Below are positions 40,040 to 64,000 of a DNA stretch of 64,000 bases, one piece after another. Below the pieces are notes generated by a model that did not search any database, had not been told where the DNA came from, and saw nothing but the letters and a program-made list of their open reading frames with translations. The stretch's first letter is position 1; every line of letters begins with the position of its first letter. Source of the stretch: Acaryochloridaceae cyanobacterium VAR_48_metabat_390 (GTDB lineage Bacteria > Cyanobacteriota > Cyanobacteriia > Thermosynechococcales > Thermosynechococcaceae); contig JANPLU010000030.1 in assembly GCA_031422435.1 (NCBI GenBank), positions 95,918 to 159,917 of the forward strand, written 5' to 3'. The position numbers and the translations under genes were made by a program.

Positions 40040-41020
40040 TTATTGTTCTTCGTAAAGATTCTTTTTGATGTGCTGCTGGGCAAAGGTATTGCGCTCCCAA
40101 AAAACGCCATCTACCCACCCTTGGATACAGGATTCAGCTTCAGCCAATTCCAAGCGACGTGCCGCTAAAAGACAGTAGTCTTGCTCTAAATCAATGCCCA
40201 AGTAGCGGCGACCTAACTTTTTTGCTGCAACCACCGTTGTACCGCTGCCCAGAAAGGGATCTAGCACTAAATCTTCAGCATTAGAGCTGGCCAACAGCAG
40301 CTTTGCCAACAGCTTCTCACTCTTTTGAGTGGGATGAAGCGTGTTTTCTGGCATGGACCAGAATGGAATGGTGATGTCTGTCCAAAGATTGGATGGGTAA
40401 GTGTCGCGGAAGCTGCCTTGTTCGGTGGCCTCCCAGTCACGAGGCTGTCCCTGGGCGTCTCGGTAAGGCGCTAAAACGCGCCGTCGCTGCTTGACTGCCT
40501 CTGTATTAAAGGTGTACTGCTCTGAAACGGTACAAAACCAAATATCTTCGCTGGCGTTTTTCCAGTTGGCTTTTGCCCCGCGACCTTTTTCGCGCTCCCA
40601 GGTAATGCGATTGCGCACAATGAGGTGTTCGGAGGCTGCCATAAAAATAGAGGCAGACGAAAACCAGTCGCCGCAGATGTAGACCGTAGCGGTTTTTTTA
40701 AGCAGCGGCTTAAGCGATCGCAGCACTCGATCCAGCCAATCGGCATAATGCTGCACAGACTGACGGTTAAACCGCCGTCCATTAAAGCTTTTGGTGAGAT
40801 TGTAGGGCGGATCCAAAATCAGCAGATCCACACACTGCTGAGGCAGCGACGGCGCAAGAGCAAGACAGTCTCCATGAAGAATGCCCGATTGCCACACTTC
40901 ATCAGCCACAGGCAGCGGGATCTCAAGGAAGTGCGATCGCAGACGGACGCAGTCCTCTGGCGTGAGAACGATGGATCGATTCAGCCGAGAGTAAGGCTTG
41001 CCCGAGTTTCCGGTCGTCAT
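40040..41020 (-). CDS. Adenine/N4-cytosine DNA methyltransferase (beta class)
   Basis: DPPY precedes HPTQK and DPFLGSGTT. Confidence 0.9.
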   Translation of the reverse strand: MTTGNSGKPYSRLNRSIVLTPEDCVRLRSHFLEIPLPVADEVWQSGILHGDCLALAPSLPQQCVDLLILDPPYNLTKSFNGRRFNRQSVQHYADWLDRVLRSLKPLLKKTATVYICGDWFSSASIFMAASEHLIVRNRITWEREKGRGAKANWKNASEDIWFCTVSEQYTFNTEAVKQRRRVLAPYRDAQGQPRDWEATEQGSFRDTYPSNLWTDITIPFWSMPENTLHPTQKSEKLLAKLLLASSNAEDLVLDPFLGSGTTVVAAKKLGRRYLGIDLEQDYCLLAARRLELAEAESCIQGWVDGVFWERNTFAQQHIKKNLYEEQ

Positions 41021-43207: not shown

Positions 43208-44041
43208 TTAGGATTTTACGTTGAGAACCCGCTTAACTAAGGGTCTTAACGAACAGTACCAAACATTTTTGAGCTTGAACCATCCATACTTCAAAACGTT
43301 AATAGGATGCAGACGCTGAGCATAAAACTGAACAAACTCTGGATGTGGCTTACCATCACGCGCCATGACAAAGTAGGGCGGTTCAACCAGCGGATCAAAA
43401 CAGTGGAGTGGCAAACACTCTAAAACATACGCCCAACGAGACTGATTGGTCGTGTTGGGTGCCGTACAGTGTAGTAAGAAGGACGAAAAGACCACAACAT
43501 CCCCTGGTTCTGCCTCAATCATCACGGGCGCTTCAATGTTACGCTCGCAAGAAAAAAAACTCTCAACATAGGTGTGAGGAAAAACCGTTTGCTCCATAAA
43601 GTATTGACCCGGCTGAACCCAAAGCGCACCATTGTCAGCCGTAACTTTAGTTAGCGGAATCCAAACCTGATAGTAAGGATGTTTGAGCTGAGTGTAGCGA
43701 TTATCCTGATGCCAAGGCATCATACTTGCCCCTGGATCTTTTGAAATCGCCTGATCCCATCGTACCCAAATATCGGAACCAATAATTTTTGATAGTACAT
43801 CTACAATTTTGGACTGGGTGATAAGTTCTCGAATTTTTCCACTGCGACTTAGAAACTCAGTATGGTAGTGCAACCGATTTTGATCACATCCGAAAGTGTT
43901 TTCTTTCTGGTCAGATGACTGAATATTTTCCCATAGAGCTTTTATTTCTTCAATAGAGAATAATCCTCTATAGATAATATAGCCCTGCCTTTCAAATTCT
44001 TCTCGACCCCCTGAGTTAAAGTTTACTGTTTTCTCTAGCAT
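43208..44041 (-). CDS. Phytanoyl-CoA dioxygenase (PhyH) family Fe(II)/2-oxoglutarate enzyme
   Basis: WHQD, WIPL...NGAL, PGDVVVFS..LLHCT..N....R. Confidence 0.88.
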   Translation of the reverse strand: MLEKTVNFNSGGREEFERQGYIIYRGLFSIEEIKALWENIQSSDQKENTFGCDQNRLHYHTEFLSRSGKIRELITQSKIVDVLSKIIGSDIWVRWDQAISKDPGASMMPWHQDNRYTQLKHPYYQVWIPLTKVTADNGALWVQPGQYFMEQTVFPHTYVESFFSCERNIEAPVMIEAEPGDVVVFSSFLLHCTAPNTTNQSRWAYVLECLPLHCFDPLVEPPYFVMARDGKPHPEFVQFYAQRLHPINVLKYGWFKLKNVWYCSLRPLVKRVLNVKS

Positions 44042-49319: not shown

Positions 49320-51992
49320 TTAAAGGTCGGGGCCAACCGTCACAATAAGCAAGTGATCGGGCAAGATTAATTCTTGAATGACCTGATCAATCTGCGCCAT
49401 CGAAACGGCTTCAATTTTGAGCGGAAAATCTCGAATTTCTTCGGTACCAAACCCATCCACAGCATTGATAAGCATCCGATGCACGACAGCATCTGGGTTT
49501 GCCAGCTCGACCGGATAGCTATTTACGATGCTGCGTTTAGCGGTGCTGAGTTCTGCCTCAGAAATCCCGTTTTGGCGCAGGTGCTGGAGCAGCGCAATGG
49601 TGCTGTTCACCGCCTGTTCTGTATCTTCGGGTGCGGTCTGCATTTCGATCACAAACGGCCCTGCGATTTGACCTGCCGCAAAGTAGCTATAGATGCCGTA
49701 GGTTAGCCCTTGGCGATCGCGGATTTCTGCCCCTAGCCGACTCGAAAGCGTGTCGCCCCCTAAAATTTGATTGAGAACCATCGCAGGGTGATAGCGAGCG
49801 TCGCGGCGGTCAAGGCCAGGATAGCCCATGTAGGTGACGGACTGACTCTTGCCAGGAAGTGAAATCTGTACCCGATGGGTGGCGGCGGGTAATGCAACCG
49901 CTGGAACCTGAGGCGTTGATTCAGCGACCGTGGGTTTCCAGTCGCCAAAATAGGTTTGAATTTGAGCCTGTACCTGAGGAATCTCAAAATCGCCCACTAA
50001 GGCTAAGACCGTATGCTCTGGCGTGTAGCGCTGATGATAAAACGTCTGGATGTCTTCTCGCGTAATGCCCTGCATTGTTTCAATACTAGGGAAAACGTGG
50101 AACGGATGGTCGGGGGCATACAGCTTTTGCTGAAGTGTTCTACGCCCCAGCCGCGCCGGATCGTCTAACTCCATGTGCAGACTAGAGATAATTTGCTTGC
50201 GCGATAGCTCTAGCTCAGAATCTGGGAATGCTGCCTGCTGAAGCACTTCGGCTAGAGTTTGCAGTAAAAGAGGTAGATCTGCGGCTAAGGCATGGCCTTC
50301 GACTTCAACGCCTTCTCGAAAGGCGCTAAAGTCTAAACCTGCGCCTCTGTCTTCAAGCCGTTTTGCTAAGGCTAGGGCATCGTGCGTTGCTGTGCCGCCC
50401 ATGACGGTTTCGGCAGTTAGGCTAGCAACCCCTGGCTTTGAGAGCAGATCTAGCCCATTTCCGGCCTGGATGTTGCCGTTGAGAGTAACGGTGGGGGAGC
50501 TGTGGTCGCTCAGCAGCAGCACTCGTAACCCGTTCGGGAGCGTAAAGGTTTCAGGCAGCACCTGGGTGGCGGAGCCTTTAGTGGCGTTGAGGGCTGGCAG
50601 ATACTGCGCCACCTCTGCCGGATCGACAGGTTCGCTAGGGGTAAAGTTTTCGACGGTTTGCTGGGCAGAAATGCCGCCCACTTCTGCGTCTTCATCAAAT
50701 TGGGTGGGTTCAAAGTACCCGACGGTGCGCTGGGCTGCGTTGAGGTAGGTTTGGGCAACGCGCTGTACGTCAGCGGCACTCACCTGCTGGATTTGGGCTA
50801 AGTAGCGATCGCTGTAGCAATAGTCGCCTGTGACCACTTCACTGTAGGCTAACTGACTGGCCTGACTATCTACCTCGCGGTTGCTCATCATAAAGTGCGT
50901 CATGAGCTGCTGTTTGGCTCGCTCTAGCTCTTCGTCAGACACAGGGGTTTGCTGAATGTCTGCGATCGTTTGCAGTAAGACCCGATCGACGGCTTCTAGG
51001 GTCTGCTCTGGAATCAGCGAAGCAGAGATGTTGTACCATCCTGGCTCCATGAGGGCGGCAGAGTAGGAGCTAACATGGCTGGCTAGCCCTGGCTCAATTA
51101 AGGTTTGAAAAAATCTTGAGTTGCGACCGACGGATAAAACTGCATCTAAAACATCTAGCACCGGAACGTCAGGGTGCTGGACATCTGGGATGGGGTAGAC
51201 CGATTCGATGAGAGATGCGCTGCCCGGCTGCTGGAGGAGGAGGGGAGCAGAAGGGGAATCTCCCTTTTTTTCTGGCGTTGACAAACTTGAAACAGACGGA
51301 CGAGACGCATTAGGGGCAAGCGCACCAAAGGTTTTATCAATGCTTAATTGCAGCGTGTCTGGGTCAAAATCTCCGGTGACGACCAGCACCGCATTATCAG
51401 GGCTGTAATAGGTGCCGTAATAATCGCGCACTTGTGCCACGGTAAAGCTCTCTACATCCGTTTTAGTGCCACCGACGGGCAGTCCGTAGGCGCGATCTGG
51501 AAATGCCTGACGCATGACTGCCTCGGACAGGCGATACTCTGGGCTGTTGTCGTACCCCTGAAGTTCTGAAATCACGACGCGCTTTTCGGTTTCAAGCTGC
51601 TCTTCGTTGATGAGAGAGTGACGCATCCGGTCGGCTTCGAGTACCAGCAGTGCCTCAAGTTTATCGCTGCTGACGGTGCCAAAATAGGCCGTCATGTCGT
51701 AGCTGGTGAAGGCATTAGAAGCGCTGCCTAGGGCGCTAAACAATCGTCCAAACTGGATGGGGCGGCTTTGGGTACCTTTGAATAACAGATGCTCTAGCTG
51801 ATGAGAGATGCCGTTAAGTCCGGGGCCTTCATTGCGGGAACCCACGCGGTACCAAACCTGAACGCTGACAACGGGTGCGGTATGAATTTCTTTGGTTAGT
51901 ACCGTTAGGCCATTGTCTAAAACTGTTCTTTGGACTCCGCGAGTCAATGTGTTCATAGTTTGAGCAGCAGGAAAGGTCATGGAGGGAATCAA
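49320..51992 (-). CDS. M16 (pitrilysin/insulinase) zinc peptidase
   Basis: HQLEHLLFKG inverted zincin motif, NAFTS and IRDRQGLTYG; start uncertain. Confidence 0.92.
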   Translation of the reverse strand: MIPSMTFPAAQTMNTLTRGVQRTVLDNGLTVLTKEIHTAPVVSVQVWYRVGSRNEGPGLNGISHQLEHLLFKGTQSRPIQFGRLFSALGSASNAFTSYDMTAYFGTVSSDKLEALLVLEADRMRHSLINEEQLETEKRVVISELQGYDNSPEYRLSEAVMRQAFPDRAYGLPVGGTKTDVESFTVAQVRDYYGTYYSPDNAVLVVTGDFDPDTLQLSIDKTFGALAPNASRPSVSSLSTPEKKGDSPSAPLLLQQPGSASLIESVYPIPDVQHPDVPVLDVLDAVLSVGRNSRFFQTLIEPGLASHVSSYSAALMEPGWYNISASLIPEQTLEAVDRVLLQTIADIQQTPVSDEELERAKQQLMTHFMMSNREVDSQASQLAYSEVVTGDYCYSDRYLAQIQQVSAADVQRVAQTYLNAAQRTVGYFEPTQFDEDAEVGGISAQQTVENFTPSEPVDPAEVAQYLPALNATKGSATQVLPETFTLPNGLRVLLLSDHSSPTVTLNGNIQAGNGLDLLSKPGVASLTAETVMGGTATHDALALAKRLEDRGAGLDFSAFREGVEVEGHALAADLPLLLQTLAEVLQQAAFPDSELELSRKQIISSLHMELDDPARLGRRTLQQKLYAPDHPFHVFPSIETMQGITREDIQTFYHQRYTPEHTVLALVGDFEIPQVQAQIQTYFGDWKPTVAESTPQVPAVALPAATHRVQISLPGKSQSVTYMGYPGLDRRDARYHPAMVLNQILGGDTLSSRLGAEIRDRQGLTYGIYSYFAAGQIAGPFVIEMQTAPEDTEQAVNSTIALLQHLRQNGISEAELSTAKRSIVNSYPVELANPDAVVHRMLINAVDGFGTEEIRDFPLKIEAVSMAQIDQVIQELILPDHLLIVTVGPDL

Positions 51993-52508
51993 GAACAGCC
52001 TAAAGATGTCGAGAGACTCGACTTTTGCAAAAGTCTCTCTGGCGTGGTTTAGCTGCCACCACTTATTTTAGTGTAGGGGTGATTGATAAAATGTTGACTG
52101 CTTTCAGATTAGGCAAATTAGGCAAGCACCAGCTTGGCACAAAGCCTCAAGACAGACCTCCTCCACCATTACCTCTTAGATTTTTGAGTTTGCAGTGGCT
52201 GGTTGCGATGAGCGTTGTGCAACAAAGTCATAAGAAACGGGCACACTCGTATGGAAGGCAGGGTATTTGTACAGTCTAAATCAGGGATGCAGTTAAAATT
52301 CTTGCGAAAGAAGGTTTAGGGATGGTTTCATTTACGATTGCCTGAGGTCGCAACATATCCTGCATACAGATTGAGTAGACTTAAGACTGTTTTCAAAGAT
52401 CCCTACGAGAAGAACTTTCATTATCCTGTGGGTGGTTCCTTCACCATGTGATTTTGTGCATCAGTCTAGAGCTTGGTTCTATGGGAGCAAATGCTCAGGG
52501 TAAGGGAT

Positions 52509-52910
52509 ATGGCGAGTCGAGCAATTTTATGCGTAGATGATGAGCGCGTTGTGCTGTTTAGCTTGCGAGATCAGCTCACAAAACATTTTGGCGATCGCTA
52601 TCGCTGTGAAATTGCTGAAAGCACCGATGAAGCCTGGGAGGTCATTGAAGAGCTTCAGGAAGAGCAGGTCAAAATTCTGGTGATTGTTTCGGACTGGCTA
52701 ATGCCCGGGATGCGAGGAGATGAATTTCTGATCCAGGTTCATCAGCGCTTCCCAGATATTGTTACGGTTCTTTTGACGGGGCACGCGGACGAATCCGCCA
52801 TTGAGCGCGCGCGGCAAGAGGCAAATTTGTTTGCCTATGTGACTAAGCCTTGGCGTGAAGCAGCCCTCATCACGGTCATTCAATCTGGTTTGGAGACATT
52901 TGATGCGTAA
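52509..52910 (+). CDS. Single-domain response regulator (receiver only)
   Basis: ILCVDDE, VSDWLMPGM, LLTG and YVTKPW; ATG at 52509. Confidence 0.92.
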   Translation: MASRAILCVDDERVVLFSLRDQLTKHFGDRYRCEIAESTDEAWEVIEELQEEQVKILVIVSDWLMPGMRGDEFLIQVHQRFPDIVTVLLTGHADESAIERARQEANLFAYVTKPWREAALITVIQSGLETFDA

Positions 52911-54810
52911 ACGGGTAATCCTTTGCATTGATGACGAAAGGATGGTGTTGTTTAGCCTGCGGGATCAGTTGAGCTGGATTCTTAAGGAGGGTTACAGTAT
53001 CGAGCTGGCGGAAAGTGGCGAAGAAGCCTTGGATTTATTTGCAGAACTCACCGCAGAGAGTATTGATATCCCTCTGGTGATTTGCGATCAAATTATGCCA
53101 AGAATGAGCGGGTCAGAACTACTCACTCAAATTCATCGCCAGTCGCCTAAAACGCTCAAGATTATGCTGACAGGAATGGCTAGCTTTGAGGATGTGGTGC
53201 AGGCGGTTAACCACGCCAGTCTCTATCGCTATATCACCAAACCTTGGGACAAAACAGATCTCAGCCTAACCGTGCGAGAGGCGCTGCGGCGTTATGAGCA
53301 AGAGACGCAGGTCGCAAACCAGAACTGCATCTTACAGCAGATGAATGCAGATTTGGAACGCGAGATTGCCGAGCGCCATCTTGTGGAAGCGAAGTTAGCC
53401 CATGATGCGCTCCATGATGCCCTGACTGGATTACCCAATCGTGTGCTGTTTTTAAATCGGCTGGAGCAGACGGTTCAAACCGCTCAGGAAAGTTCCGACT
53501 ATCAATTTGCGGTTTTGTTTATTGACCTAGATCGCTTCAAAATTGTGAATGATAGTTTAGGGCATACCGTAGGGGATGAGTTTTTAAAGGCGATCGCCCA
53601 ACGGCTTCGTCATTGCTTACGACCCGCAGACCTGGTGGCGCGAATGGGTGGAGATGAATTCACCATTTTGCTTGAAAACATTGATAGTGCTAGCGAAGCA
53701 ACCCAAGTTTCAGATCGAATTTTGACCATGCTGAGCAACCCCTTTAACTTAGAGGGGCACATCCTCGTCTCTAGCGCTAGCATTGGCATCATCATCGGTT
53801 CTGATCAATACCAGCGGGGTGCCGATTTACTGAGAGATGCCGATTTAGCAATGTATCAGGCCAAAGCCTGCGGTAAAGCCCGCGCTGCGTTTTTCAATCC
53901 AGACCTACATGCTCAAACACTGGCGTTACTGACGTTAGAAAGCGACCTCCGCCAAGCCTTAATCCAGCAGGAATTTGTCCTGCACTACCAGCCCATTGTG
54001 GCTTTAACGACGGGACAGTTGGTTGGCCTTGAAGCCCTCGTCCGATGGCAGCATCCGCAGCGGGGCTTTATTGCACCCAATGAATTTATCCCCGTTGCTG
54101 AAGAAACTGGGGTCATTATTGCCCTTGGCGAATGGGTCTTACGGGAAGCCTGTCGCCAACTGCGCCTCTGGTATCAGGCGTTTCCTGAGTGGGGGAACCT
54201 GAGCGTCAGTGTTAATTTATCGGGGAAACAGCTTCGAGAACCCGATTTGACCGCGCAACTGGCGCAAATTTTGAAAGAAACAGGGCTAGAGGGCCAATTG
54301 CTTAAGCTAGAGCTAACGGAAAGTGTCTTGATTGGTGACGCAGAGGCAATACTGCAAACCCTCGCTGGCATCCATGCCCAAAAGATTCAGTTCAGCATTG
54401 ATGATTTTGGAACGGGCTATTCCTCCCTGAGCTATCTGCCCCGTTTTCCTATTAGCGCCCTCAAAATTGATCGCTCTTTTGTGAGCCAGATGCTCACGGA
54501 TGCTGACAACTTTGAGATTGTGAAAGCCATTATTACCCTAGCTCACAGCCTTGGCCTACAGGTGGTGGCGGAGGGAATCGAAACGCCTGAGCAAGCCGCT
54601 CAACTACGAGCCTTCGGCTGTGAATTTGGGCAAGGCTACTTTTTTGGCAGGCCGATGGATAGCGCTGCTACAGAGCAAATTCTGATAACTCCGATAGGAT
54701 GGCAGATGTCTGTAGATATAGACCCATCATGCCCAAAAAATGCCCAGGAAAACACGAATGAGCGGAAGGGAACAGAGTACAGATTGTTTATGTGTTCACC
54801 AGTGGATTGA
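52903..54810 (+). CDS. REC-GGDEF-EAL c-di-GMP enzyme
   Basis: ILCIDDE/ICDQIMP receiver, RPAD-x5-GGDEF, EALVRW and DDFGTGYSSL; ATG overlaps the upstream stop (ATGCGTAA) after GGAG. Confidence 0.94.
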   Translation: MRKRVILCIDDERMVLFSLRDQLSWILKEGYSIELAESGEEALDLFAELTAESIDIPLVICDQIMPRMSGSELLTQIHRQSPKTLKIMLTGMASFEDVVQAVNHASLYRYITKPWDKTDLSLTVREALRRYEQETQVANQNCILQQMNADLEREIAERHLVEAKLAHDALHDALTGLPNRVLFLNRLEQTVQTAQESSDYQFAVLFIDLDRFKIVNDSLGHTVGDEFLKAIAQRLRHCLRPADLVARMGGDEFTILLENIDSASEATQVSDRILTMLSNPFNLEGHILVSSASIGIIIGSDQYQRGADLLRDADLAMYQAKACGKARAAFFNPDLHAQTLALLTLESDLRQALIQQEFVLHYQPIVALTTGQLVGLEALVRWQHPQRGFIAPNEFIPVAEETGVIIALGEWVLREACRQLRLWYQAFPEWGNLSVSVNLSGKQLREPDLTAQLAQILKETGLEGQLLKLELTESVLIGDAEAILQTLAGIHAQKIQFSIDDFGTGYSSLSYLPRFPISALKIDRSFVSQMLTDADNFEIVKAIITLAHSLGLQVVAEGIETPEQAAQLRAFGCEFGQGYFFGRPMDSAATEQILITPIGWQMSVDIDPSCPKNAQENTNERKGTEYRLFMCSPVD

Positions 54811-57800
54811 AGCTCGGACTGCCCAAACGCCTCAAGCGATCGCCGTTGAGTTTGCTGCTCAGCAGTGGCGCTACGAGGCGTTAAATCAACGGGCGAATCA
54901 ACTGGCTCATACTCTGCGGAAGCTGGGGGTGGGTCCCGAAACCTTGGTGGGTCTCTGTATTGAGCGATCGCCGTTGATGATAGTGGGACTATTGGCCATC
55001 CTCAAGGCTGGGGGAGCCTATGTCCCCCTTGACCCTACCTACCCCAGGGAGCGAATTGCCCTCATGCTGGAGGATTCGCAGCTTTCAGTGCTGCTCACCC
55101 TAGAGCATCATCAAGATGCGCTACCCCCCCATCAAGGCAAAGTTTTTTGTCTCGACACCGATTGGGAAACAATCGCGCAAGAATCCGTTGAGAACCCTGA
55201 GCCGTTGGTGCTGCCGACGAATTTGGCTTACGTCATCTACACGTCGGGTTCTACGGGCAAGCCGAAAGGGGTCATGATTGAGCATCGCGCTCTAGCCAAT
55301 TTTGTTGAGGCGGCTAGCCGTGCCTATGCGATCGCACCAGAGGATCGGGTGCTTCAGTTTGCCTCCATTAGCTTTGACGCAGCGGTGGAAGAAATTTTTC
55401 CGGCCTTATGCTGTGGTGCAACCGTGGTGCTGCGAACCCAGGACATGCTGCGGTCGATCCCAGCCTTTGTAGAAACCTGTCGGAACTGGCAGATCACCCT
55501 TTGGGATTTGCCCACGGCGTTTTGGCATAAGCTCTGTGCTGAACTAAAGCGGGTAGTGCTACCCGAGTCTTTGCGCTTGGTCATTATTGGCGGAGAACGT
55601 GCCTTACCGCGCTGGCTGATGGCTTGGCGGCAGCAGGTAAACCCCCAAATTCGCCTCGTGAACACCTACGGTCCCACCGAAGCAACGGTCGTCGCCACTT
55701 GGTGCGATTTAGCAGGCCCTCAAGCCGTTGATACCTCTACCCGACTCCTCCCCATTGGTCAAGCCGTTGACAACATGCAGGTTCACATTTTAGATGACGA
55801 GCTGCGTCCGGTTCGGGTCGGGACACCTGGAGAGCTGTATCTGGGGGGCGTGGGGTTAGCCAGGGGCTATCTGCATCGCGCCGATTTAACCGCCGTCAAG
55901 TTTATTCAAACGCCCCAGAGTCGGGCGCGGGGCGATCGCCTCTACCGCACGGGCGATGTGGTGTGCTGTCGAGAAGATGGTCATCTCACGTTTCTAGACC
56001 GAGTTGACCACCAAGAGAAAATTCGCGGGTTCCGTGTGGAGCTAGGTGAAATTGAAGCGGTGTTAGAGCAGCATCCCATCGTACAGAACGCCGTGGTGGT
56101 AGCGCGGGAGGAAACACCGGGCGACAAACGGTTGGTCGCCTACGTGGTGCAGAACCCCCAGGGGGCGATCTCAGATCACTCCTTTGTAACGCCTCACCTT
56201 GAAACCGAACAAATTGCCCAGTGGCGGCTGATCCACGATGATGACAGCTTTAACCCTGCCGAGGCTCACTGGGATCCGACCTTTAATGTGAGTGGATGGC
56301 TCAATAGCTACACCGGACAGCAAATCCCCGATGTTGAAATGCGCGAGTGGGTGAACAACACCGTCAACCGAATTTTATCTCTGCAGCCGCGCCGCGCCCT
56401 CGAAATTGGCTGTGGCACGGGCTTGATACTTTTTCGGGTGGCTCCCCACTGCCATACCTATGTGGGCACCGATTTCTCAAAAGTGTCGCTCCAGCACATT
56501 CAGCAGCAGCTCACCCGTCCCGATCTGCACTTGCCTCAGGTGCAGCTCTTTGATCGGATGGCAGACGACCTCAGCGGTCTTGCGCCCCACTCCTTTGATA
56601 CGGTCATTATCAACTCAGTGATTCAATATTTTCCTAGCGCTCAGTATCTGGTAAAGGTGATTGAGGGAGCCTTGCAGGTCGTAGAGCCAGGAGGATTTAT
56701 CTTCATTGGCGATGTTCGTCACTACCCCCTGCTAGATGCCTTTGCCGCCTCAGTTGAGCTGTTTCAGGCTCCCGATGCTCTGCCAACGGAAGAGCTGCGA
56801 CGACGGGTACAAAAGCGGCGACGTCAAGAAGAAGAACTGACGCTAGATCCAGCCTTTTTTGATGCCCTCCAGCAGCAGTTTCCGCAAATTTCCCAAGTCC
56901 AGGTGCTTGTAAAAGAAGGCGTTCATCACAACGAACTCACCCGCTTCCGCTATGATGCCATTCTTCAAGTTGGCCCAGCGCCGCGCCCTTGCTTCGAGCA
57001 TCCCTGGCTTGACTGGCAGCAGGATAATCTAACCATCTCGACCATTCGTCAACGGCTGCAAAAGACTCAGCCAGAAGTTTTAGGCATCCGAGGCGTTCCT
57101 GATGCCCGTGTTTTAGCCGATGTGCAAACAGCTCGCCTCCTCGCCAGCGACGATGCCCCAACAACCGCTGGGGAAATCCGCCAGATGCTCTTAGCCCAAC
57201 TCTATGGAGTAGATCCCCAAGAATTTTGGCAGCTTGGCCGTGATTTGTGCTACGCCACCGCCTTAAGCTGCTTAGGGACTGGTGCAGCAGGCTGTTACGA
57301 TGTGCTGCTGCATCGCCGTTCTGCCGTCACCTACAGGAGTCTCCCCTGGATTTTGTCTGCGACCCCCGCACAAACGCTGTTTCTGCAACCCTGGTATCAG
57401 TATGCCAACAATCCGCTCCAGGGCAAGATCGTCCATAACCTAGTGCCCCAGTTGCGGCACTATCTCAAGGAAAAACTGCCTGCCTACATGGTGCCCTCGA
57501 CGTTTGTGATGTTAGAGGCGCTGCCCATGACCCCCAACGGCAAGGTGGATCGGCGCGCACTCCCCGCCCCCAGTTCTGATCGCCCTGCTTTAGAGATCGA
57601 ATTTGTGGCACCCCGTACCCCCATCGAACTGCAGCTAGCCGAGATTTGGACCCAGGTGATTGGCATTGAACAGGTGGGAATTTATGACAGCTTCTTTGAA
57701 TTGGGGGGCGATTCGCTGCGGGTCACGCAGTTGATTTTTCGGGTGGAAGAGGCGCTTCAGGTGGTGGTGCCACTGCTGGAGTTTTTTAAGGTTCCTACCA

Positions 57801-59101
57801 TTCATGGACTCCGAGAATATATCCATTTGGGCGATCGCCACCACCGCCGCCATCACCCAGCCACCGCGTTCATGAGCCTGTCCCAACTTCAGGCCGAAGC
57901 CCAGCTCGATCCGAGCATTCAATCGCCCTTGGAACCACCAGAGGGAGCAGAGATATCCATCGCCGCACCGCAACGCTTTTTCTTGACAGGCGCGACCGGA
58001 TTTCTGGGAACCTTTTTACTCCATGAACTGCTCCAACAAACCGAGGCGACGGTTTACTGTCTTGTCCGGGCGCAAACGGCGCAAGAGGGAAGCCAAAAGC
58101 TACAGCACGCCCTAGAGCGATATTTGCCCGATGTCGCGTTTCCCTACGCCCGCATTGTGCCTCTACGGGGCGACCTATCTCAGCCCTGGCTGGGGCTACC
58201 CGAGGCGAAGTTTCAAGAATTAGCCCATTCCCTAGACGGAATTTATCACTGCGGTGCCAGCGTCAACCTGATCTATCCCTACGCGACCCTCCGCGCGGCT
58301 AATGTTTTGGGCACTCAGGAAATCTTAAAGCTGACCAGTTACGGAAAACGCAAGCCCGTTCACTATATTTCGACCTTGGATGTGTTTGAATCCCTGGCCG
58401 CCACTGGGGTAGCAACCATTCGAGAAGAAGACAGTATTGCCCAAGGTTTAGGGATTTCTGGAGGCTACGCCCAAAGCAAATGGGTTGCCGAGCAGCTAAT
58501 GACCCAGGCTCAGTCGAGAGGGCTGCCTGTCTGCATTTACCGTCCAGGGCTGGTCACTGGGCACAGTCAAACCGGAATTGCCAATACTGAAGATCTGGTG
58601 AGTCGCTGGATCAAAGGCTTGATTCAGCTCAACTGTTCACCCCTGCTCGATCTCAGCATTGACATGTCGCCTGTGGACTACATCAGTAGGGCGATCGCCT
58701 ACCTGTCGCTCCAGCCCCAGTCCTACGGCCACACCTTCCATCTTGTTAACCCCCAACCTTTAGCCCTGAAAGACTTTGTGCAAGAACTCAATCGTCTCGG
58801 CTATCCGCTCCAGCAGGTGCCTTACGCCCAATGGCAGGCACTACTCCAGGCAGAAACCAACGCCCTCAGCCCCTTGAGTGCTGTTCTCACCGAGTCGATG
58901 GCAAAACAGTCCCTGACCCGCCTCGAAATTTGGCTAGCAGGCAACCAGATCTTTGACGGTCGCCAGACCCTTCAAGCCCTAGCCGATAGCGGCATGACTT
59001 GCCCCGCCGTAGACGATAGGCTCTTGGACTGCTATCTAACCTACCTCACTCGCAGTGGGTTTTTAGACACTCCTCACGCCCATACGTCCATTTCTCAATA
59101 A
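54740..59101 (+). CDS. Monomodular NRPS-like enzyme: A - embedded N-methyltransferase - PCP - terminal thioester reductase (no C domain)
   Basis: YTSGSTGKPKG, YGPTE, YRTGD, KIRGFRVELGEIE, LEIGCGTG, NGKVDR, LGGDSL, TGATGFLG and YAQSK; start at 54740 or 54758. Confidence 0.93.
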   Translation: MPRKTRMSGREQSTDCLCVHQWIEARTAQTPQAIAVEFAAQQWRYEALNQRANQLAHTLRKLGVGPETLVGLCIERSPLMIVGLLAILKAGGAYVPLDPTYPRERIALMLEDSQLSVLLTLEHHQDALPPHQGKVFCLDTDWETIAQESVENPEPLVLPTNLAYVIYTSGSTGKPKGVMIEHRALANFVEAASRAYAIAPEDRVLQFASISFDAAVEEIFPALCCGATVVLRTQDMLRSIPAFVETCRNWQITLWDLPTAFWHKLCAELKRVVLPESLRLVIIGGERALPRWLMAWRQQVNPQIRLVNTYGPTEATVVATWCDLAGPQAVDTSTRLLPIGQAVDNMQVHILDDELRPVRVGTPGELYLGGVGLARGYLHRADLTAVKFIQTPQSRARGDRLYRTGDVVCCREDGHLTFLDRVDHQEKIRGFRVELGEIEAVLEQHPIVQNAVVVAREETPGDKRLVAYVVQNPQGAISDHSFVTPHLETEQIAQWRLIHDDDSFNPAEAHWDPTFNVSGWLNSYTGQQIPDVEMREWVNNTVNRILSLQPRRALEIGCGTGLILFRVAPHCHTYVGTDFSKVSLQHIQQQLTRPDLHLPQVQLFDRMADDLSGLAPHSFDTVIINSVIQYFPSAQYLVKVIEGALQVVEPGGFIFIGDVRHYPLLDAFAASVELFQAPDALPTEELRRRVQKRRRQEEELTLDPAFFDALQQQFPQISQVQVLVKEGVHHNELTRFRYDAILQVGPAPRPCFEHPWLDWQQDNLTISTIRQRLQKTQPEVLGIRGVPDARVLADVQTARLLASDDAPTTAGEIRQMLLAQLYGVDPQEFWQLGRDLCYATALSCLGTGAAGCYDVLLHRRSAVTYRSLPWILSATPAQTLFLQPWYQYANNPLQGKIVHNLVPQLRHYLKEKLPAYMVPSTFVMLEALPMTPNGKVDRRALPAPSSDRPALEIEFVAPRTPIELQLAEIWTQVIGIEQVGIYDSFFELGGDSLRVTQLIFRVEEALQVVVPLLEFFKVPTIHGLREYIHLGDRHHRRHHPATAFMSLSQLQAEAQLDPSIQSPLEPPEGAEISIAAPQRFFLTGATGFLGTFLLHELLQQTEATVYCLVRAQTAQEGSQKLQHALERYLPDVAFPYARIVPLRGDLSQPWLGLPEAKFQELAHSLDGIYHCGASVNLIYPYATLRAANVLGTQEILKLTSYGKRKPVHYISTLDVFESLAATGVATIREEDSIAQGLGISGGYAQSKWVAEQLMTQAQSRGLPVCIYRPGLVTGHSQTGIANTEDLVSRWIKGLIQLNCSPLLDLSIDMSPVDYISRAIAYLSLQPQSYGHTFHLVNPQPLALKDFVQELNRLGYPLQQVPYAQWQALLQAETNALSPLSAVLTESMAKQSLTRLEIWLAGNQIFDGRQTLQALADSGMTCPAVDDRLLDCYLTYLTRSGFLDTPHAHTSISQ

Positions 59102-59126
59102 CCCCAATCCAAGAGACTTAATCCTC

Positions 59127-59909
59127 ATGTCAACAGCAGATATTCCCTACGCCAACTACACCGCTTGGAGCGCCACCGAGTACCTCAATGAGTACTACAG
59201 CGACATCATGTCCGACGAAAAATTCTGTCTAGAGTTTTTGGTGGCAGCCTTGCAGCATACCCCAGACGTTCCGGTGGCGCTGGACTTTGGCAGTGGCCCC
59301 ATTATTTCGCACATTTTGCCTTTAGTCGCTAAAGCCCAAACGGTCATCATGTCAGAATATTTAGAGTCCAACTGTGCGGCTGTGCAGCAGTGGCTGTCTG
59401 GTCACGCCGAAGCCCATAACTGGAACCCGTTTACGCAAGAAGTTTTATGTTTAGAAGGCAATCTGTCCCCAATGGCAGCGGATATTCAGGCCCGCGAGCA
59501 GTTGGTTCGCCAACGGGTGACTCAAGTGCTGCCTGGAGATGTGCGGGATGCCAATCCTTTAGGTTTAGAAAAGCGGGAATTTTTTCCGCTGGTAAGCGCC
59601 CACTACTGCGCAGAAGGCATTAGCCCCGATCTAGACCAGTGGCGCGCCTACATGGGCAATATTATGAGCATGGTGAAGCCCGGGGGCACGCTCATTACCT
59701 CCTCCTGCGGGTCTGGCATCTTTTATAAGGTTGCCGATCAGTATTTTCCATCTACTAAGCTAGAGCCTCAAGATGTGCTGAACTGCTTTTGGGAAAACGG
59801 ATTCATCGACCTGGATATTCGCGTCCGGCAACTGCCAGAGTATTTCTCGGCAGAGCAGGGCTTTTTCTATACTATTTTTGCCTGCGGGGTCAAATCAGAT
59901 CAGACTTAA
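59127..59909 (+). CDS. NNMT/PNMT/TEMT-family SAM-dependent N-methyltransferase
   Basis: EYLNEYY, LDFGSGP, HNWNPF, GDVRDANPL, VKPGGTL and YKVADQYFPS parallel the NNMT-family motif order. Confidence 0.85.
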   Translation: MSTADIPYANYTAWSATEYLNEYYSDIMSDEKFCLEFLVAALQHTPDVPVALDFGSGPIISHILPLVAKAQTVIMSEYLESNCAAVQQWLSGHAEAHNWNPFTQEVLCLEGNLSPMAADIQAREQLVRQRVTQVLPGDVRDANPLGLEKREFFPLVSAHYCAEGISPDLDQWRAYMGNIMSMVKPGGTLITSSCGSGIFYKVADQYFPSTKLEPQDVLNCFWENGFIDLDIRVRQLPEYFSAEQGFFYTIFACGVKSDQT

Positions 59910-59994
59910 GGGGGCACAACCCGATCATTAACGGGAGAGAAATGGGTAGCCTTTGAAGAAGACCCGTGGGGCAAAACCGAGCGAGCAGCACTCC

Positions 59995-62430
59995 ATGCTA
60001 AGGCAAGCACCGCAGTTTATTAGTCAGATTACGAAACGATTACCGCTGCGGATCGTTCTCACCGTTCCCTTTGTGCTACAGGTGCTTGCTGCCACTGGGT
60101 TGGTGGGCTATCTTTCAATTCGCAACGGCCAGAAAGCCGTGAACGACCTTGCGCTTCAGCTTCAGCAACAGGTCAGCGCCCGTGTCGATCAGCATTTGAA
60201 TAGCTACCTCGTACTGCCGCATCAAATCAACCAGCTCAACCTAGAGGCCATTCAGCGCGGACAGCTCGACCTCAAAAATCTGAATGAATCAGGGCGCTAT
60301 TTTTGGAAACAAGCCCAGATTTTCAAAAATTTCAGCTTCATTGGCTATGCTTTGCAGGACAACACCAACGTGGGGGCAGGGCGATGGTTGAAAGGGCAAG
60401 ATTTGGTCATCACCTACCATCCAGGGGGCAGTACCAAAGACTACACCTATACCGCTGACAACCAAGGGAATCGTACCAAACAAGTTCTTACCGCAGACTA
60501 CGATGCCCTTACCGATGCGTGGTACAAAGAAACCGTAAAGGCGGGGAAACCCTTGTGGAGCCGTGTGAGCGTTGCAGAGGGGTTTGGTTCTCATGGGTAC
60601 ATTTATGCCTCCGCCAATGTGCCCATTTATAACCAGAAGCACCAACTGCTCGGCGCATTGGGGACTGATTTACTGCTGTCGGATATCAATACCTTCCTAA
60701 AGGGAATCAAGGTGAGTCCGTTAGGGAAAATCTTTATCATGGAGCGGAACGGTTTGCTGATCGCCAATTCCGGTTCATTTCCAACCTACAAACTGATTAA
60801 CAACACAGAGACGCAGCGCATTAATGCCCTAGAAAGCGACTCACCCCAAATTCGCACAGCGGCTCAATATCTCAAACAGAAGTTTGGCACGTTTGAGACG
60901 ATTCGCTCTAGCCAACAGCTTGAATTTGTATCCAGCACATTAGAGTCGCATTCATCAATGCTTGGGGGGCAGCAGAATCGTCAATTTATCAGCGTGATGC
61001 CCTGGCAAGATCGGTACGGGCTGGATTGGCTCGTGGTTGTGCTGGTGCCCGAAGCAGATTTTATGGAGCAGATTAATACCAATACCAACACAACCATCTT
61101 TCTATGCGTTCTGGCGATCGCCGTTTCTGTAATGCTTGGCATCTTCACCGCAGAATGGGTCAGCCGACCCATTCTGCGAATCAATCAGGCTGCCAAGGCG
61201 ATCGCAGGAGGAGATTTTGTCCAAACCATCGCCCTGAAGCGACGCGATGAATTAGGCGAGTTATCTCACTCCTTTGACCGTATGGCTGCTCAATTACAAA
61301 CCTCCTTTAGCGAATTAAAAGATCTCAACACAGCGCTTTCCGCCAGCGAACAACGCCTCGCCAGCTACAACCAAGTTCTAGAGCAGCAGGTGCAACAACG
61401 CACTCAGGAATTGTCCCAAACCCTGCAACAGCTCCAGTCCGCTCAGCAAGAAATCATCCAGTCTGAAAAAATGGCGGCTTTAGGGCAGCTCGTGGCAGGT
61501 ATTGCCCATGAAATCAACTCTCCATTAGGGGCTATTCAAGCCTCCGTGAGCAACATTAGCACCGCGCTAGATCAGCTCCTGCTGGAGTTTCCCCCTCTGC
61601 TGCAAACTCTATCCCCAGTACACCAAACGAGTTTCTTTACCCTAATCGAGTGGGCAAGACAACCCAGAGATCTCCTCCCCCCCCGCGTAGAGCGCCAACT
61701 GCGGCGCACCATTCAGCAAACCCTGACGGAGCAGGGCATAGAAGAAGCCGAACTTGCCGCCCAGTCGCTGAGTCGAATGGGGTTTACCTCCAGCTTAGAC
61801 CCCATTCTGCCGCTGTTGCAAATTCCCAACACCCTTGACCTTCTGGGAGCGGCACATCACCTTTCCACCATTCAACACAATAGTCAGAACACGCAGATGG
61901 CGGTAGAGAAATCATCCAGAATTGTCTATGCGCTCAAAGCGTTTGTCCGTCAAGATGGCTCAACCCAACCCATTCGAGCGTCTGTGGTAGACAGTATTGA
62001 AACGGTTCTGACGCTGTATCAGCACCATTGCCAAAATGGCATTGAGATGATTAAAAGCATCGCGCCAGTCCCCGATATTCTTTGTTACCCCGACGATCTT
62101 GCCCAGGTCTGGTCTAATCTCATTGGAAATGCCGTGCAGTCCATGAACTATCGCGGTCGATTAGAGATTGGAGTTAACGTGCAAAACCAGAATGTTGTTG
62201 TTGAGATCATCGATTGTGGCATCGGAATTCCGCTCAACATTCAAGACAAAGTGTTTGAGCCATTCTTTACAACCAAGCCATCTGGAGAAGGGAGTGGGTT
62301 AGGACTCAGTATCGTTAAGAAAATTGTGGATAAACATCATGGAAAAGTAGAGCTAGAGAGTATGGCTGGGGCAACGGTTTTTCGAGTGTGGCTGCCGCTT
62401 GACCCTGAACCTTTAGCACTGCAACTGTAG
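59995..62430 (+). CDS. Membrane sensor histidine kinase (TM-Cache-TM-HAMP-HisKA-HATPase)
   Basis: Two TM segments, extracytoplasmic Cache region, HAMP (DELGELSHSFDRM), AHEINSPL, NLIGNA, FEPFFTTK and GSGLGL. Confidence 0.92.
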   Translation: MLRQAPQFISQITKRLPLRIVLTVPFVLQVLAATGLVGYLSIRNGQKAVNDLALQLQQQVSARVDQHLNSYLVLPHQINQLNLEAIQRGQLDLKNLNESGRYFWKQAQIFKNFSFIGYALQDNTNVGAGRWLKGQDLVITYHPGGSTKDYTYTADNQGNRTKQVLTADYDALTDAWYKETVKAGKPLWSRVSVAEGFGSHGYIYASANVPIYNQKHQLLGALGTDLLLSDINTFLKGIKVSPLGKIFIMERNGLLIANSGSFPTYKLINNTETQRINALESDSPQIRTAAQYLKQKFGTFETIRSSQQLEFVSSTLESHSSMLGGQQNRQFISVMPWQDRYGLDWLVVVLVPEADFMEQINTNTNTTIFLCVLAIAVSVMLGIFTAEWVSRPILRINQAAKAIAGGDFVQTIALKRRDELGELSHSFDRMAAQLQTSFSELKDLNTALSASEQRLASYNQVLEQQVQQRTQELSQTLQQLQSAQQEIIQSEKMAALGQLVAGIAHEINSPLGAIQASVSNISTALDQLLLEFPPLLQTLSPVHQTSFFTLIEWARQPRDLLPPRVERQLRRTIQQTLTEQGIEEAELAAQSLSRMGFTSSLDPILPLLQIPNTLDLLGAAHHLSTIQHNSQNTQMAVEKSSRIVYALKAFVRQDGSTQPIRASVVDSIETVLTLYQHHCQNGIEMIKSIAPVPDILCYPDDLAQVWSNLIGNAVQSMNYRGRLEIGVNVQNQNVVVEIIDCGIGIPLNIQDKVFEPFFTTKPSGEGSGLGLSIVKKIVDKHHGKVELESMAGATVFRVWLPLDPEPLALQL

Positions 62431-62445
62431 AGCAAGGAACGCAAA

Positions 62446-64000
62446 ATGCCGATCAGGTCTCTACAGAATTTTATAAACAGCTTCCCCTGTCGGTACTCGC
62501 TGCGGTTTGTCTTCACGGTACCTTTTGTGTTGCAGGTTGTGACGATCACCAGCTTGGTCGGATACCTCTCCTTTCGGAATGGGCAGAAAGCGGTCAATGA
62601 CCTCGCCCACCAGCTCCAACAGGAGGTGAGCGCTCGCGTTGAGCAACATCTCCATACCTACCTCACCCTCCCCCATCAGCTCAACCAGCTCAATGCGGAT
62701 GCGATACAGCAGGGGGTTTTGAACCTCCAAGACTTTCAACGCTCAGGGCGCTATTTGTGGAAGCAGGCGCAGGTGTATCAGACCATCAGTTGGCTGGGCT
62801 ACTATTTACCAACCGGAGAGGGCGCAGGCGCTGGGCGCTGGGTCAAGGGGCAGAAGGGGCTAACCATTGACCAAGTCAGCCGCAGCCCCAAAGGCGTATA
62901 TAGCGTCTACGCAACTAATGCTCAGGGCGATCGCCTAAAGGTCGTCAGCACCACTGAGTACAACCCTGTCCCCGATACTTGGTATCAAAATGCGCTAAAG
63001 GCTAGAAAGCCAGCCTGGGGTAAGGTCTTTGTGTCTCAAGCCTTTAAGAACTATGTGGCGTTGCCTGCGACCTATCCACTCTACAGTCGAGATCGTCGTC
63101 TGGTTGCCATTTTGGGCGTTGATTTACTGCTGTCCAACATTAGCGATTTTCTGCGCACCATTAAAGCCAGCCCTTCGGGCAAAATTTTTATCATTGAGCG
63201 CAGCGGGCTGTTGATTGCCAGCTCTGGAACACAATCTCCCTCTACCGTTGTGCAGGGTGTTACCCAGCGCCTGAATATTCTAGACAGCGCTGACCCCCAG
63301 ATGAAAGCCGTCGCCAAGCAGCTGGAAACCACCTTTGGATCCTTCAGCGCCATTCAGAAGCAGCAAGAACTGATCTTGCCACTTTCGCTCAATTCTTCTT
63401 TTGGGCAGCAGCAGCGTCAGTTTGTCCATGTCACTCCCTGGCAAGATCGGTTTGGGCTGGACTGGCTGGTGGTCGTGATGGTGCCAGAATCTGACTTTAT
63501 GGCTCAAATTAACGCCAATACCCAGACCACGCTCGCCCTTTGTCTGCTCGCCCTTTGTCTCTCTATTGCGATCGGCATTCTAACCGCACGCTGGGTCGCC
63601 CACCCTGTTCTGCGCTTAAACCAAGCGGCAAAAGCCATTGCCAGTGGAGATTTAGAGCAAATTGTGGAGTCATCAGAGCGCCAAGACGAGGTGGGGGAGC
63701 TAACCCAATCTTTTAACAATATGGCGAAGCAATTGCAAACCTCTTTTGGAGATTTACAGTCCTTAAACACCGCCCTCAACGAGAGTCAGCAGCAGTTAGC
63801 CCAGACCAATCAAACCCTAGAACAACAGGTTCAAGAACGCACCCATGAACTATCCTTTGCCCTGGCGCAGCTTCAGGATGCTCAAGACGAAGTTATTCAA
63901 TCGAAAAAGATGGTGCAATCGGAAAAAATGGCCGATCTGGGTCAGCTCATTGCGGGGATTGTCCACGACATTAATACGCCCTTGGGAGCCATCCAAGCCT
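62446..64000 (+). CDS. Second paralogous Cache-HAMP sensor histidine kinase (3' truncated by window edge; not in ORF track)
   Basis: Frame read by hand, open from ATG 62446 to the end: MPIRSLQNF...VPFVLQV...[16 protein letters not shown]...[13 protein letters not shown]...[16 protein letters not shown]. Confidence 0.9.

Follow-up and report, generated by a model that had tools for sequence, protein, structure and literature searches.

Stand-alone NRPS-like reductases paired with dCache sensor kinases: a candidate self-made amine signal in cyanobacteria

Why should a small-molecule synthase be embedded among the genes of a signalling operon? The question is raised by a 64,000-nucleotide stretch ('the window') of contig JANPLU010000030.1 (positions 95,918 to 159,917) from Acaryochloridaceae cyanobacterium VAR_48_metabat_390, which ends in a run of six plus-strand open reading frames (ORFs). 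Their Pfam domains are, in order: a receiver (REC); REC-GGDEF-EAL; a non-ribosomal peptide synthetase (NRPS)-like enzyme of adenylation, methyltransferase, carrier and reductase domains (A-MT-T-R); an NNMT_PNMT_TEMT methyltransferase ('NNMT'); and two kinases, dCache-HAMP-HisKA-HATPase and dCache-HAMP-HisKA. An earlier note, made from the DNA letters, gave this order and these domains correctly and read the run as an autoinducer circuit. The reading we favour, at a probability of about 0.6, is that the cell makes an N-methylated amino-alcohol signal for which the paired kinases are receptors, with cyclic di-GMP (c-di-GMP) as the output in this lineage. It is likely that an amine of the cell's own is both made and sensed, because the pairing recurs in many cyanobacteria with differing predicted amino acids and matching sensors. 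Whether cyanobacteria have density or neighbour signals of their own is an open question, and no general synthase/receptor family is known to be established for them.

The synthase and the sensor are conserved together. A scan of genome contigs with the NNMT alignment found 19 loci, 14 of them of cyanobacterial type, and a kinase of the same dCache subfamily (type 1) is present in 11 of these 14, with differing cores and in three orientations: downstream, convergent (L006) or divergent (L018, L019). The complete set of A-NMT-T-R, NNMT and dCache kinase is found in 8 of the 14. A failure of synthase and sensor to be co-conserved was one of the grounds that the earlier note offered for abandoning its proposal; co-conservation is what these loci display. 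At two loci, L018 and L019, the place of the NRPS is taken by a fusion of a methyltransferase and a group II pyridoxal phosphate (PLP) decarboxylase (L018:7349-9826, L019:7745-9823), next to the same sensor type and NNMT. Both routes would strip the carboxylate and methylate, and the fusion may offer another way to a methylated amine. Among 401 genomes of the phylum, the best sensor matches were in G192 and the present genome, both with NNMT adjacent, although the profile derives from linked sensors and its ranking favours them; the other 18 regions inspected hold 17 lower-scoring sensors that lack both NRPS and NNMT, or else gntF genes. Of the unlinked type-1-like sensors in this sample, the one with the highest score (L061:5949-11705) is divergent from a terpene synthase gene. 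A metagenome scan gave 23 loci, with the cyanobacterial cassette in one (L156), near-identical to L009.

The earlier note confined itself to a single cluster, and in this it was too narrow, as the system extends to a whole family in which stand-alone A-(MT)-T-R enzymes are paired with sensors. An NRPS reductase-domain search of the same 401 genomes listed 150 matches, from which 60 loci were taken by frame length, mostly about 1000-1600 amino acids (aa); frames of ~500 aa were skipped, and so were most of the long hybrids and some repeats within a genus. In this sample, a kinase lies within 2.2 kb of 16 of the 22 stand-alone A-(MT)-T-R or A-R enzymes, as against 0 of 38 multimodular or condensation (C) domain-linked ones; L090 and L139 are placed with the multimodular ones on account of their length and neighbours, though the C-domain probe missed both. 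The kinase is the next same-strand gene in 15 of the 16. Three of the positives (L126, L130, L131) may be another system: they are divergent A-R enzymes whose neighbours are Ser/Thr kinase-AAA-GAF-histidine kinases of ~1800 aa. The window's genus adds 7 non-multimodular loci (stand-alone or truncated), 4 of them with a kinase next door. The present genome has two NRPS genes in all, each within 2.2 kb of a kinase, and only 95 of its 2806 non-kinase ORFs (3.4%) are that close to a kinase-like ORF; the adjacency exceeds chance in this genome.

The sensor type shifts with the adenylation code, if the codes stand for the amino acids that we take them to mean. Basic codes go with sensor type 1 in 10 of 10 kinase-linked cases. 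Pro codes and N-methyl-Ala, both of which would yield secondary amines, go with type 2 in 4 of 4, even where the Pro-coded enzymes sit on different reductase branches. Ala/Gly-type or related codes go with type 3 in 12 of 13, the remaining case having a permease-like sensor; at L113:5843-11969 an A-T-R gene is followed by a hybrid kinase whose sensor region is multi-pass and permease-like, with no dCache. Both of the first two kinds occur in the present genome, where a second locus (L003:8590-20000, equivalent to G000:C107:66589-78000; GC content 44%) has a Pro-type A-T-R and a type-2 dCache hybrid kinase and continues with REC-GGDEF-EAL, a PAS kinase and a receiver. This synthase and kinase have orthologues in L236.

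An account without any functional link would have one or a few ancestral insertions beside kinases being passed on, and the window's run arising as a chance merger. Kinases are indeed common in cyanobacteria, the independent contrasts are few, and the merger with the output operon is seen in this genome only. Even so, linkage outlasts inversion, exchange of kinase cores and replacement of the synthase, over several families and among proteins that are 44-62% identical. Three unrelated dCache types and a permease-like sensor are each paired, against the 3.4% background, and junctions overlap or are near zero. We regard the no-link account as very improbable.

Some members of the family have a further domain. 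In three Gly-coded stand-alone A-T-R enzymes (L135:6895-10587, L136:9018-12716, L128:9117-12482), one or two PilZ domains occupy the position of the window enzyme's methyltransferase, and the second PilZ of L136 bears both RxxxR and NxSxxG. PilZ is also found within multimodular cyanobacterial NRPSs (P0054-P0060). These insertions suggest that some NRPSs are controlled by c-di-GMP.

What would the window's synthase make? The NRPS-like reductase (54740 or 54758 to 59101), identified by Pfam/NCBIfam models, code and motifs, is a stand-alone A-NMT-T-R enzyme with no C domain. Motif anchoring gives the code DAEDIGTVV plus the A10 Lys, a string that L234 and 8 of 9 NNMT-linked relatives share unchanged; among 35 homologues of similar length, the code is a related acidic one in 31 and Gly/Gln-like in 4. 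The code presumably specifies Lys, although no paper with the string was found in the literature searched. The closest solved A core is ApnA A1 (4d4g), which activates Arg and Tyr. Among named families, MxcG matches the A domain best, with a score under its cut-off (822 versus 2300 bits). According to a passage of PMC8400222, MxcG activates lysine and its reductase domain releases the aldehyde and then the alcohol. A basic side chain would fit the two acids at the base of the pocket, and the A domain likely activates a basic amino acid: Lys at about two chances in three, Arg or Orn at a little under one in three.

The N-methyltransferase sits inside the A domain and is closest to that of 5wmm; from its family, it would methylate the α-amine while the amino acid is held on the carrier, whose Ser motif is present. 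The reductase domain keeps its NAD(P)H, Thr and YxxxK motifs and would free the product as aldehyde or alcohol. The alcohol is favoured because the domain, closest to that of MxaA (4u7w), is of the MxaA/MxcG type; an aldehyde cyclised onto the side-chain amine is a possible alternative. The NNMT-family protein (59127 to 59909; PF01234), a predicted amine N-methyltransferase dependent on S-adenosylmethionine with PDB matches to NNMT, PNMT and INMT, would add a further methyl to a free amine, making methylated lysinol the most likely product. The earlier prediction of an N-methylated, reduced amino acid is borne out by the enzyme domains, as a prediction, and the sensor pocket looks amine-type.

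Two better known pathways can be set aside for this locus. The resemblance to MxcG and MxaA, the best named A-domain family and the closest reductase structure, does not extend to a myxochelin-type siderophore: the window enzyme has no C domain, aryl-loading partners or siderophore genes, falls far below the MxcG cut-off and carries an inserted N-methyltransferase. In soil metagenome loci L147, L150, L152 and L162, an NNMT homologue precedes a C-A-T-R enzyme with the code DAESIGTVV and follows a TonB receptor and kinases; this is possibly a methylated myxochelin-like pathway. The second is guanitoxin. Public records call relatives of this NNMT 'GntF', and the window's enzyme passes the GntF model NF041360, with 113.6 bits compared with about 614 (613-615) for the genes of L078 and L079. 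It shares membership of the NNMT/PNMT family with the GntF described in part of PMC10673588, is 32% identical to that of L079, and has NRPS and kinase neighbours rather than gntB, gntC or gntE. The low identity and score and the lack of gntB/C/E mark the name as over-annotation; a public 'GntF' label on a methyltransferase of this group is no sign of guanitoxin. The GntF gene at L078:9596-10420 (615 bits) has no recognisable gnt neighbours in 20 kb, the full cluster being in L079. In Armatimonadota-type loci (L020-L024, L141), NNMT homologues are mostly divergent from genes for GGDEF(-HD-GYP) and class I lysyl-tRNA-synthetase-like proteins, with EamA or aldehyde dehydrogenase downstream; the homologue is doubled in L020 and L021.

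The product, if it is a signal, would leave the cell and reach the two adjacent dCache kinases. Kinase 1 (59995 to 62430, or from the TTG at 59953) has the order TM-dCache-TM-HAMP-HisKA-HATPase (TM, transmembrane), with two hydrophobic peaks and the H, N, G and F boxes. Kinase 2 (62446 to 64000, by Pfam) is its paralogue, 54% identical over 524 aa. The sensor of kinase 1 models as a dCache fold (pLDDT 72). Its identity to solved domains is just 8-16%, and the top ten fold matches include PctD, McpX, 3LIB, TlpQ and PacA, a comparison at the level of the fold. Asp188 of kinase 1 aligns with Arg126 of PctA, and the amine-binding Asp239 is kept (numbering from 59953); kinase 2 has Asp177 and Asp226 at these positions. 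Also retained with respect to PctA is the Trp-Tyr aromatic pair, the third aromatic being Ser in kinase 1 and Phe in kinase 2. In the part of bioRxiv 2023.04.06.535858 that describes these pockets, Arg126 of PctA is the residue to which the ligand's carboxylate binds, amine sensors do not conserve it, and the dCache_1AM motif in PctD is R103, D133, F188, Y189, M215, S217 and D235. The window's sensors thus share with dCache_1AA and dCache_1AM the fold, the aromatic pair and the terminal Asp, and differ from dCache_1AA in having Asp in place of the carboxylate-binding Arg. With this substitution the pocket would take a cationic product. Asp stands at the Arg126 position in 13 of 13 synthase-linked domains and 2 of 30 unlinked ones, 22 of the latter having Glu; by eye, type-3 sensors seem to have Glu there as well. 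Cation binding looks to be a trait of the subfamily as a whole; a product that has been reduced or decarboxylated would be consistent with this, but is not proved by it.

The same pocket could serve a different purpose. The kinases might respond to an environmental amine, such as a polyamine or a cue from a host or neighbour, by turning on the synthase, so that the sensor reads an input and not the product. The dCache family is common without synthases, being found in 35 of the 401 genomes at E<=1e-100 while the NNMT family exceeds its cut-off in 4, and the Arg position is acidic across that family. L197 has the kinase 1 sensor, REC and REC-GGDEF-EAL and no synthase, and the PilZ domains of the three stand-alone enzymes suggest that synthases can lie downstream of c-di-GMP. 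Left unexplained are the shift of sensor type with the A-domain code, including the pairing of Pro-coded enzymes of different branches with type 2, and the occurrence of the same sensor beside the decarboxylase route. Sensing of an outside amine seems to us unlikely, though less so than the absence of any link.

The output half of the run has a different history. The stand-alone receiver (133 aa, ATG at 52509, to 52910; PF00072) has intact acidic pocket, phospho-Asp, Thr and Lys motifs, and the REC-GGDEF-EAL protein (52903 to 54810; PF00072, PF00990, PF00563), a predicted bifunctional c-di-GMP cyclase/phosphodiesterase, has intact GGDEF, RxxD I-site and EAL motifs. These two genes are found in 0 of the 14 cyanobacterial NNMT loci, most of which have a hybrid kinase and then a REC-kinase. 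Receiver relatives with 70-78% identity occur instead in synthase-free operons of kinase, REC and REC/GGDEF/EAL (L196-L200, L247, L249). Kinase 1 itself is a mosaic. Five synthase-linked kinases match its sensor at 44-51% identity and its core at just 26-33%, whereas five synthase-free operons match its core at 54-57%, their sensors being 30-40% identical in four cases and 55% in L197. The run is best explained as the union of a synthase-sensor cassette and a c-di-GMP operon, a merger seen in this genome only. The comparison of the six-gene order covers relatives more distant than the closest ones, whose proteins are 86-90% identical. The notion of the six genes as a single conserved unit is thus rejected, and the c-di-GMP output proposed in the earlier note holds for this lineage and not for the system at large, since the output genes are missing from the NNMT loci and form a synthase-free operon elsewhere. 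In this lineage, the kinases would phosphorylate the REC and REC-GGDEF-EAL proteins, as suggested by the conserved operon of kinase core, REC and REC-GGDEF-EAL, with a predicted change in c-di-GMP as the result.

The nature of the outputs also bears on a third possibility, that the product has some other main job, as an allelochemical, deterrent, osmolyte or cue for host or neighbours, and that the kinase monitors the pathway to tune production or tolerance. All of the synteny evidence is equally well accommodated. Six of the 22 stand-alone enzymes are kinase-free, L102 having a phosphotransferase and an EamA transporter instead, and NNMT is distantly homologous to a toxin-pathway methyltransferase. 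Against this, the outputs are varied and global (hybrid kinases, REC-kinases, GGDEF/EAL, adenylate cyclase), with no cluster transcription factor; the multimodular NRPS clusters, which make bioactive peptides, have no adjacent kinases (0 of 38); and the sensor-only loci L016 and L197 make better sense as listeners. A pathway monitor seems to us improbable, but a more serious contender than the two accounts discussed above.

Several observations weigh against a self-made signal. Neither an exporter nor a DNA-binding regulator is present among the cluster genes, so that no autoinduction loop is visible. L016 retains NNMT and kinase after loss of the NRPS, and L007, L012 and L017 have NNMT without a kinase in the retrieved DNA. 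The decarboxylase of L018 has 4obu and decarboxylases of aromatic amino acids as its nearest matches, and is not clearly a lysine enzyme. In the sensor tree, which like the reductase tree is a quick one, the 14 linked sensors group together with just 86% SH-aLRT, and the group includes the synthase-free L197, the sister of the kinase 1 sensor. The complete same-genus genome that carries L197 has no NNMT match and no stand-alone reductase above the model cut-off; L197 may be a listener, or evidence that the sensor reads an amine from outside. An acid at the Arg position (D or E in 24 of the 30 unlinked domains) is a property of the subfamily, so the Asp is no specific pointer to what the synthase makes. 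The 6 kinase-free stand-alone enzymes count here too, as does the origin of the 16 positives, 5 being from one genus and 2 from another. In L235 (1-11139), a Gly-coded A-T-R is beside type-2 chemoreceptors: the gene is divergent from a chemosensory operon with receivers, CheW and two type-2 genes, one for a dCache chemoreceptor and the other cut off. Finally, the contrast tree, from which L239 and L240 were omitted because a contig end cuts their N-terminus, gives only 3 independent contrasts for stand-alone enzyme against kinase and 2 for code against sensor (sign test p about 0.5), too few to separate the pairing statistically from shared ancestry alone.

The six genes are tightly packed, and the junction lengths reported earlier are all correct. 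The receiver stop (52908-52910) overlaps the REC-GGDEF-EAL gene (ATG at 52903) by 8 nucleotides (nt), and the end of the latter (54810) overlaps the NRPS-like gene by 71 or 53 nt, depending on its start. The gaps downstream are 25 nt to NNMT, 85 nt to kinase 1 (43 nt from the TTG) and 15 nt to kinase 2. Catalytic motifs are undamaged in all six genes, as far as each is present. The region upstream (51993 to 52508), divergent from an M16 peptidase gene, presumably holds the promoter of the run; a promoter and terminator scan found no sigma-70 consensus on the plus strand of 51900-64000, so that the promoter is not located. The window ends where the contig (C30) ends, and kinase 2 is therefore broken off just past its H-box. 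Its C-terminal half likely sits at the start of contig C16, which opens with a kinase core 52% identical to kinase 1 over 298 aa. C30 and C16 do not overlap in sequence, and C16 begins with ~130 nt that do not align, which leaves an intact kinase 2 unproven. The GC-rich bases of that end (G000:C16:1-130, L002) match nothing else in the genome and are an assembly artefact or an insertion.

Recent foreign origin is rejected for the run: its GC content at third codon positions (0.50-0.60) resembles that of the genome (0.51 +/- 0.07), and its 11,492 nt have 11 HIP1 sites, with 12.0 expected at the genome rate. The long residence that the earlier note deduced from HIP1 is weakly supported, as the density is at the genome level and yet NNMT is found in 0 of 9 same-genus genomes. 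The note also saw no exporter or phosphopantetheinyl transferase in the window; no cluster gene encodes the former, and a gene for the latter lies elsewhere in the genome, on C23. Elsewhere in the window are genes for a PhyH-family dioxygenase (43208-44041) and an N6/N4 DNA methylase (40040-41020).

CqsA/CqsS and LqsA/LqsS are quorum systems in which a synthase is paired with a sensor kinase. RpfF/RpfC/RpfG is another, as outlined in a passage of PMC12838280. The window resembles these in the adjoining of a small-molecule synthase and a membrane kinase and, with Rpf, in the c-di-GMP output. Their synthases are crotonases or PLP acyltransferases, unlike the NRPS and NNMT of the window, and their sensor type is unrelated; Pfam and NCBIfam show only NRPS and NNMT families here, with no homology to RpfF, CqsA or LqsA. 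A further difference is that in the cyanobacterial loci the synthase and dCache sensor vary jointly and the output module is exchanged.

Closer in chemistry is HamD, an A-T-R enzyme that makes the quorum signal valdiazen in Burkholderia cenocepacia H111, to which the pvf and mgo systems of Pseudomonas are related (passages of PMC5878181). The product of these systems is a diffusible autoinducer, according to parts of PMC5878181 and PMC10194917. In each, a stand-alone A-T-R enzyme without a C domain turns one amino acid into a small reduced molecule; the window enzyme adds a methyltransferase. The ham, pvf and mgo clusters have N-oxygenase tailoring genes and a valine diazeniumdiolate product, whereas the window has a predicted basic amino acid and two N-methyltransferases, with no N-oxygenase among its six genes or beside the enzyme in L006-L017. 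Those systems have no adjacent membrane kinase in the passages describing them, in contrast to the adjacent dCache kinases of the window; the Pvf receptor was still future work in 2023, in a section of PMC10194917, and the passage on valdiazen in a 2026 review gives no receptor (PMC12838280). A diatom A-T-R-R enzyme yields tryptophanol, active at picogram levels (a passage of PMC13194791). The earlier claim that no NRPS-reductase signalling is described in cyanobacteria agrees with the open-access literature searched, in which the synthase-kinase pairing is not described, and needs the rider that HamD and valdiazen are precedents outside the phylum. Passages of two genome-mining papers on cyanobacteria, PMC4247773 and PMC4558948, do not have the pairing, the main text of the former being without any occurrence of 'kinase' or 'regulator'; their supplements may list such clusters as orphans. 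A-T-R autoinducers are thus already known, and a cyanobacterial or receptor-paired case was not found in the literature searched.

The recurrence of the pairs invites a broader and more tentative proposal, to which we give somewhat less than an even chance: that cyanobacteria share a widespread and diversified amino-alcohol 'language' of one-gene A-(MT)-T-R synthases and matching extracellular kinase sensors, with swappable outputs. Its words might be derived from Lys, Pro, Ala and Gly, with or without N-methyl, with listener-only strains and more than one channel in a genome (two in the present one), a part of the proposal held with equal reserve. No more confidently, PilZ-bearing synthases might close a feedback loop with c-di-GMP.

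Within one operon, the window names a synthase, a predicted class of product, a candidate receptor and an output. Two different pairs in one genome provide a built-in test of specificity, and cultured carriers exist, for example Leptolyngbya sp. PCC 7375 (L015). If self-made amine signalling is correct, it would supply ligands for three orphan groups of cyanobacterial dCache sensors, account for a class of NRPS-like genes that are orphans at present, and be relevant to the control of mats, biofilms and motility. If the language proposal is also true, these pairs would be the first general family of self-signals and receptors in the phylum, and would provide the receptor type that is missing for the A-T-R autoinducers.

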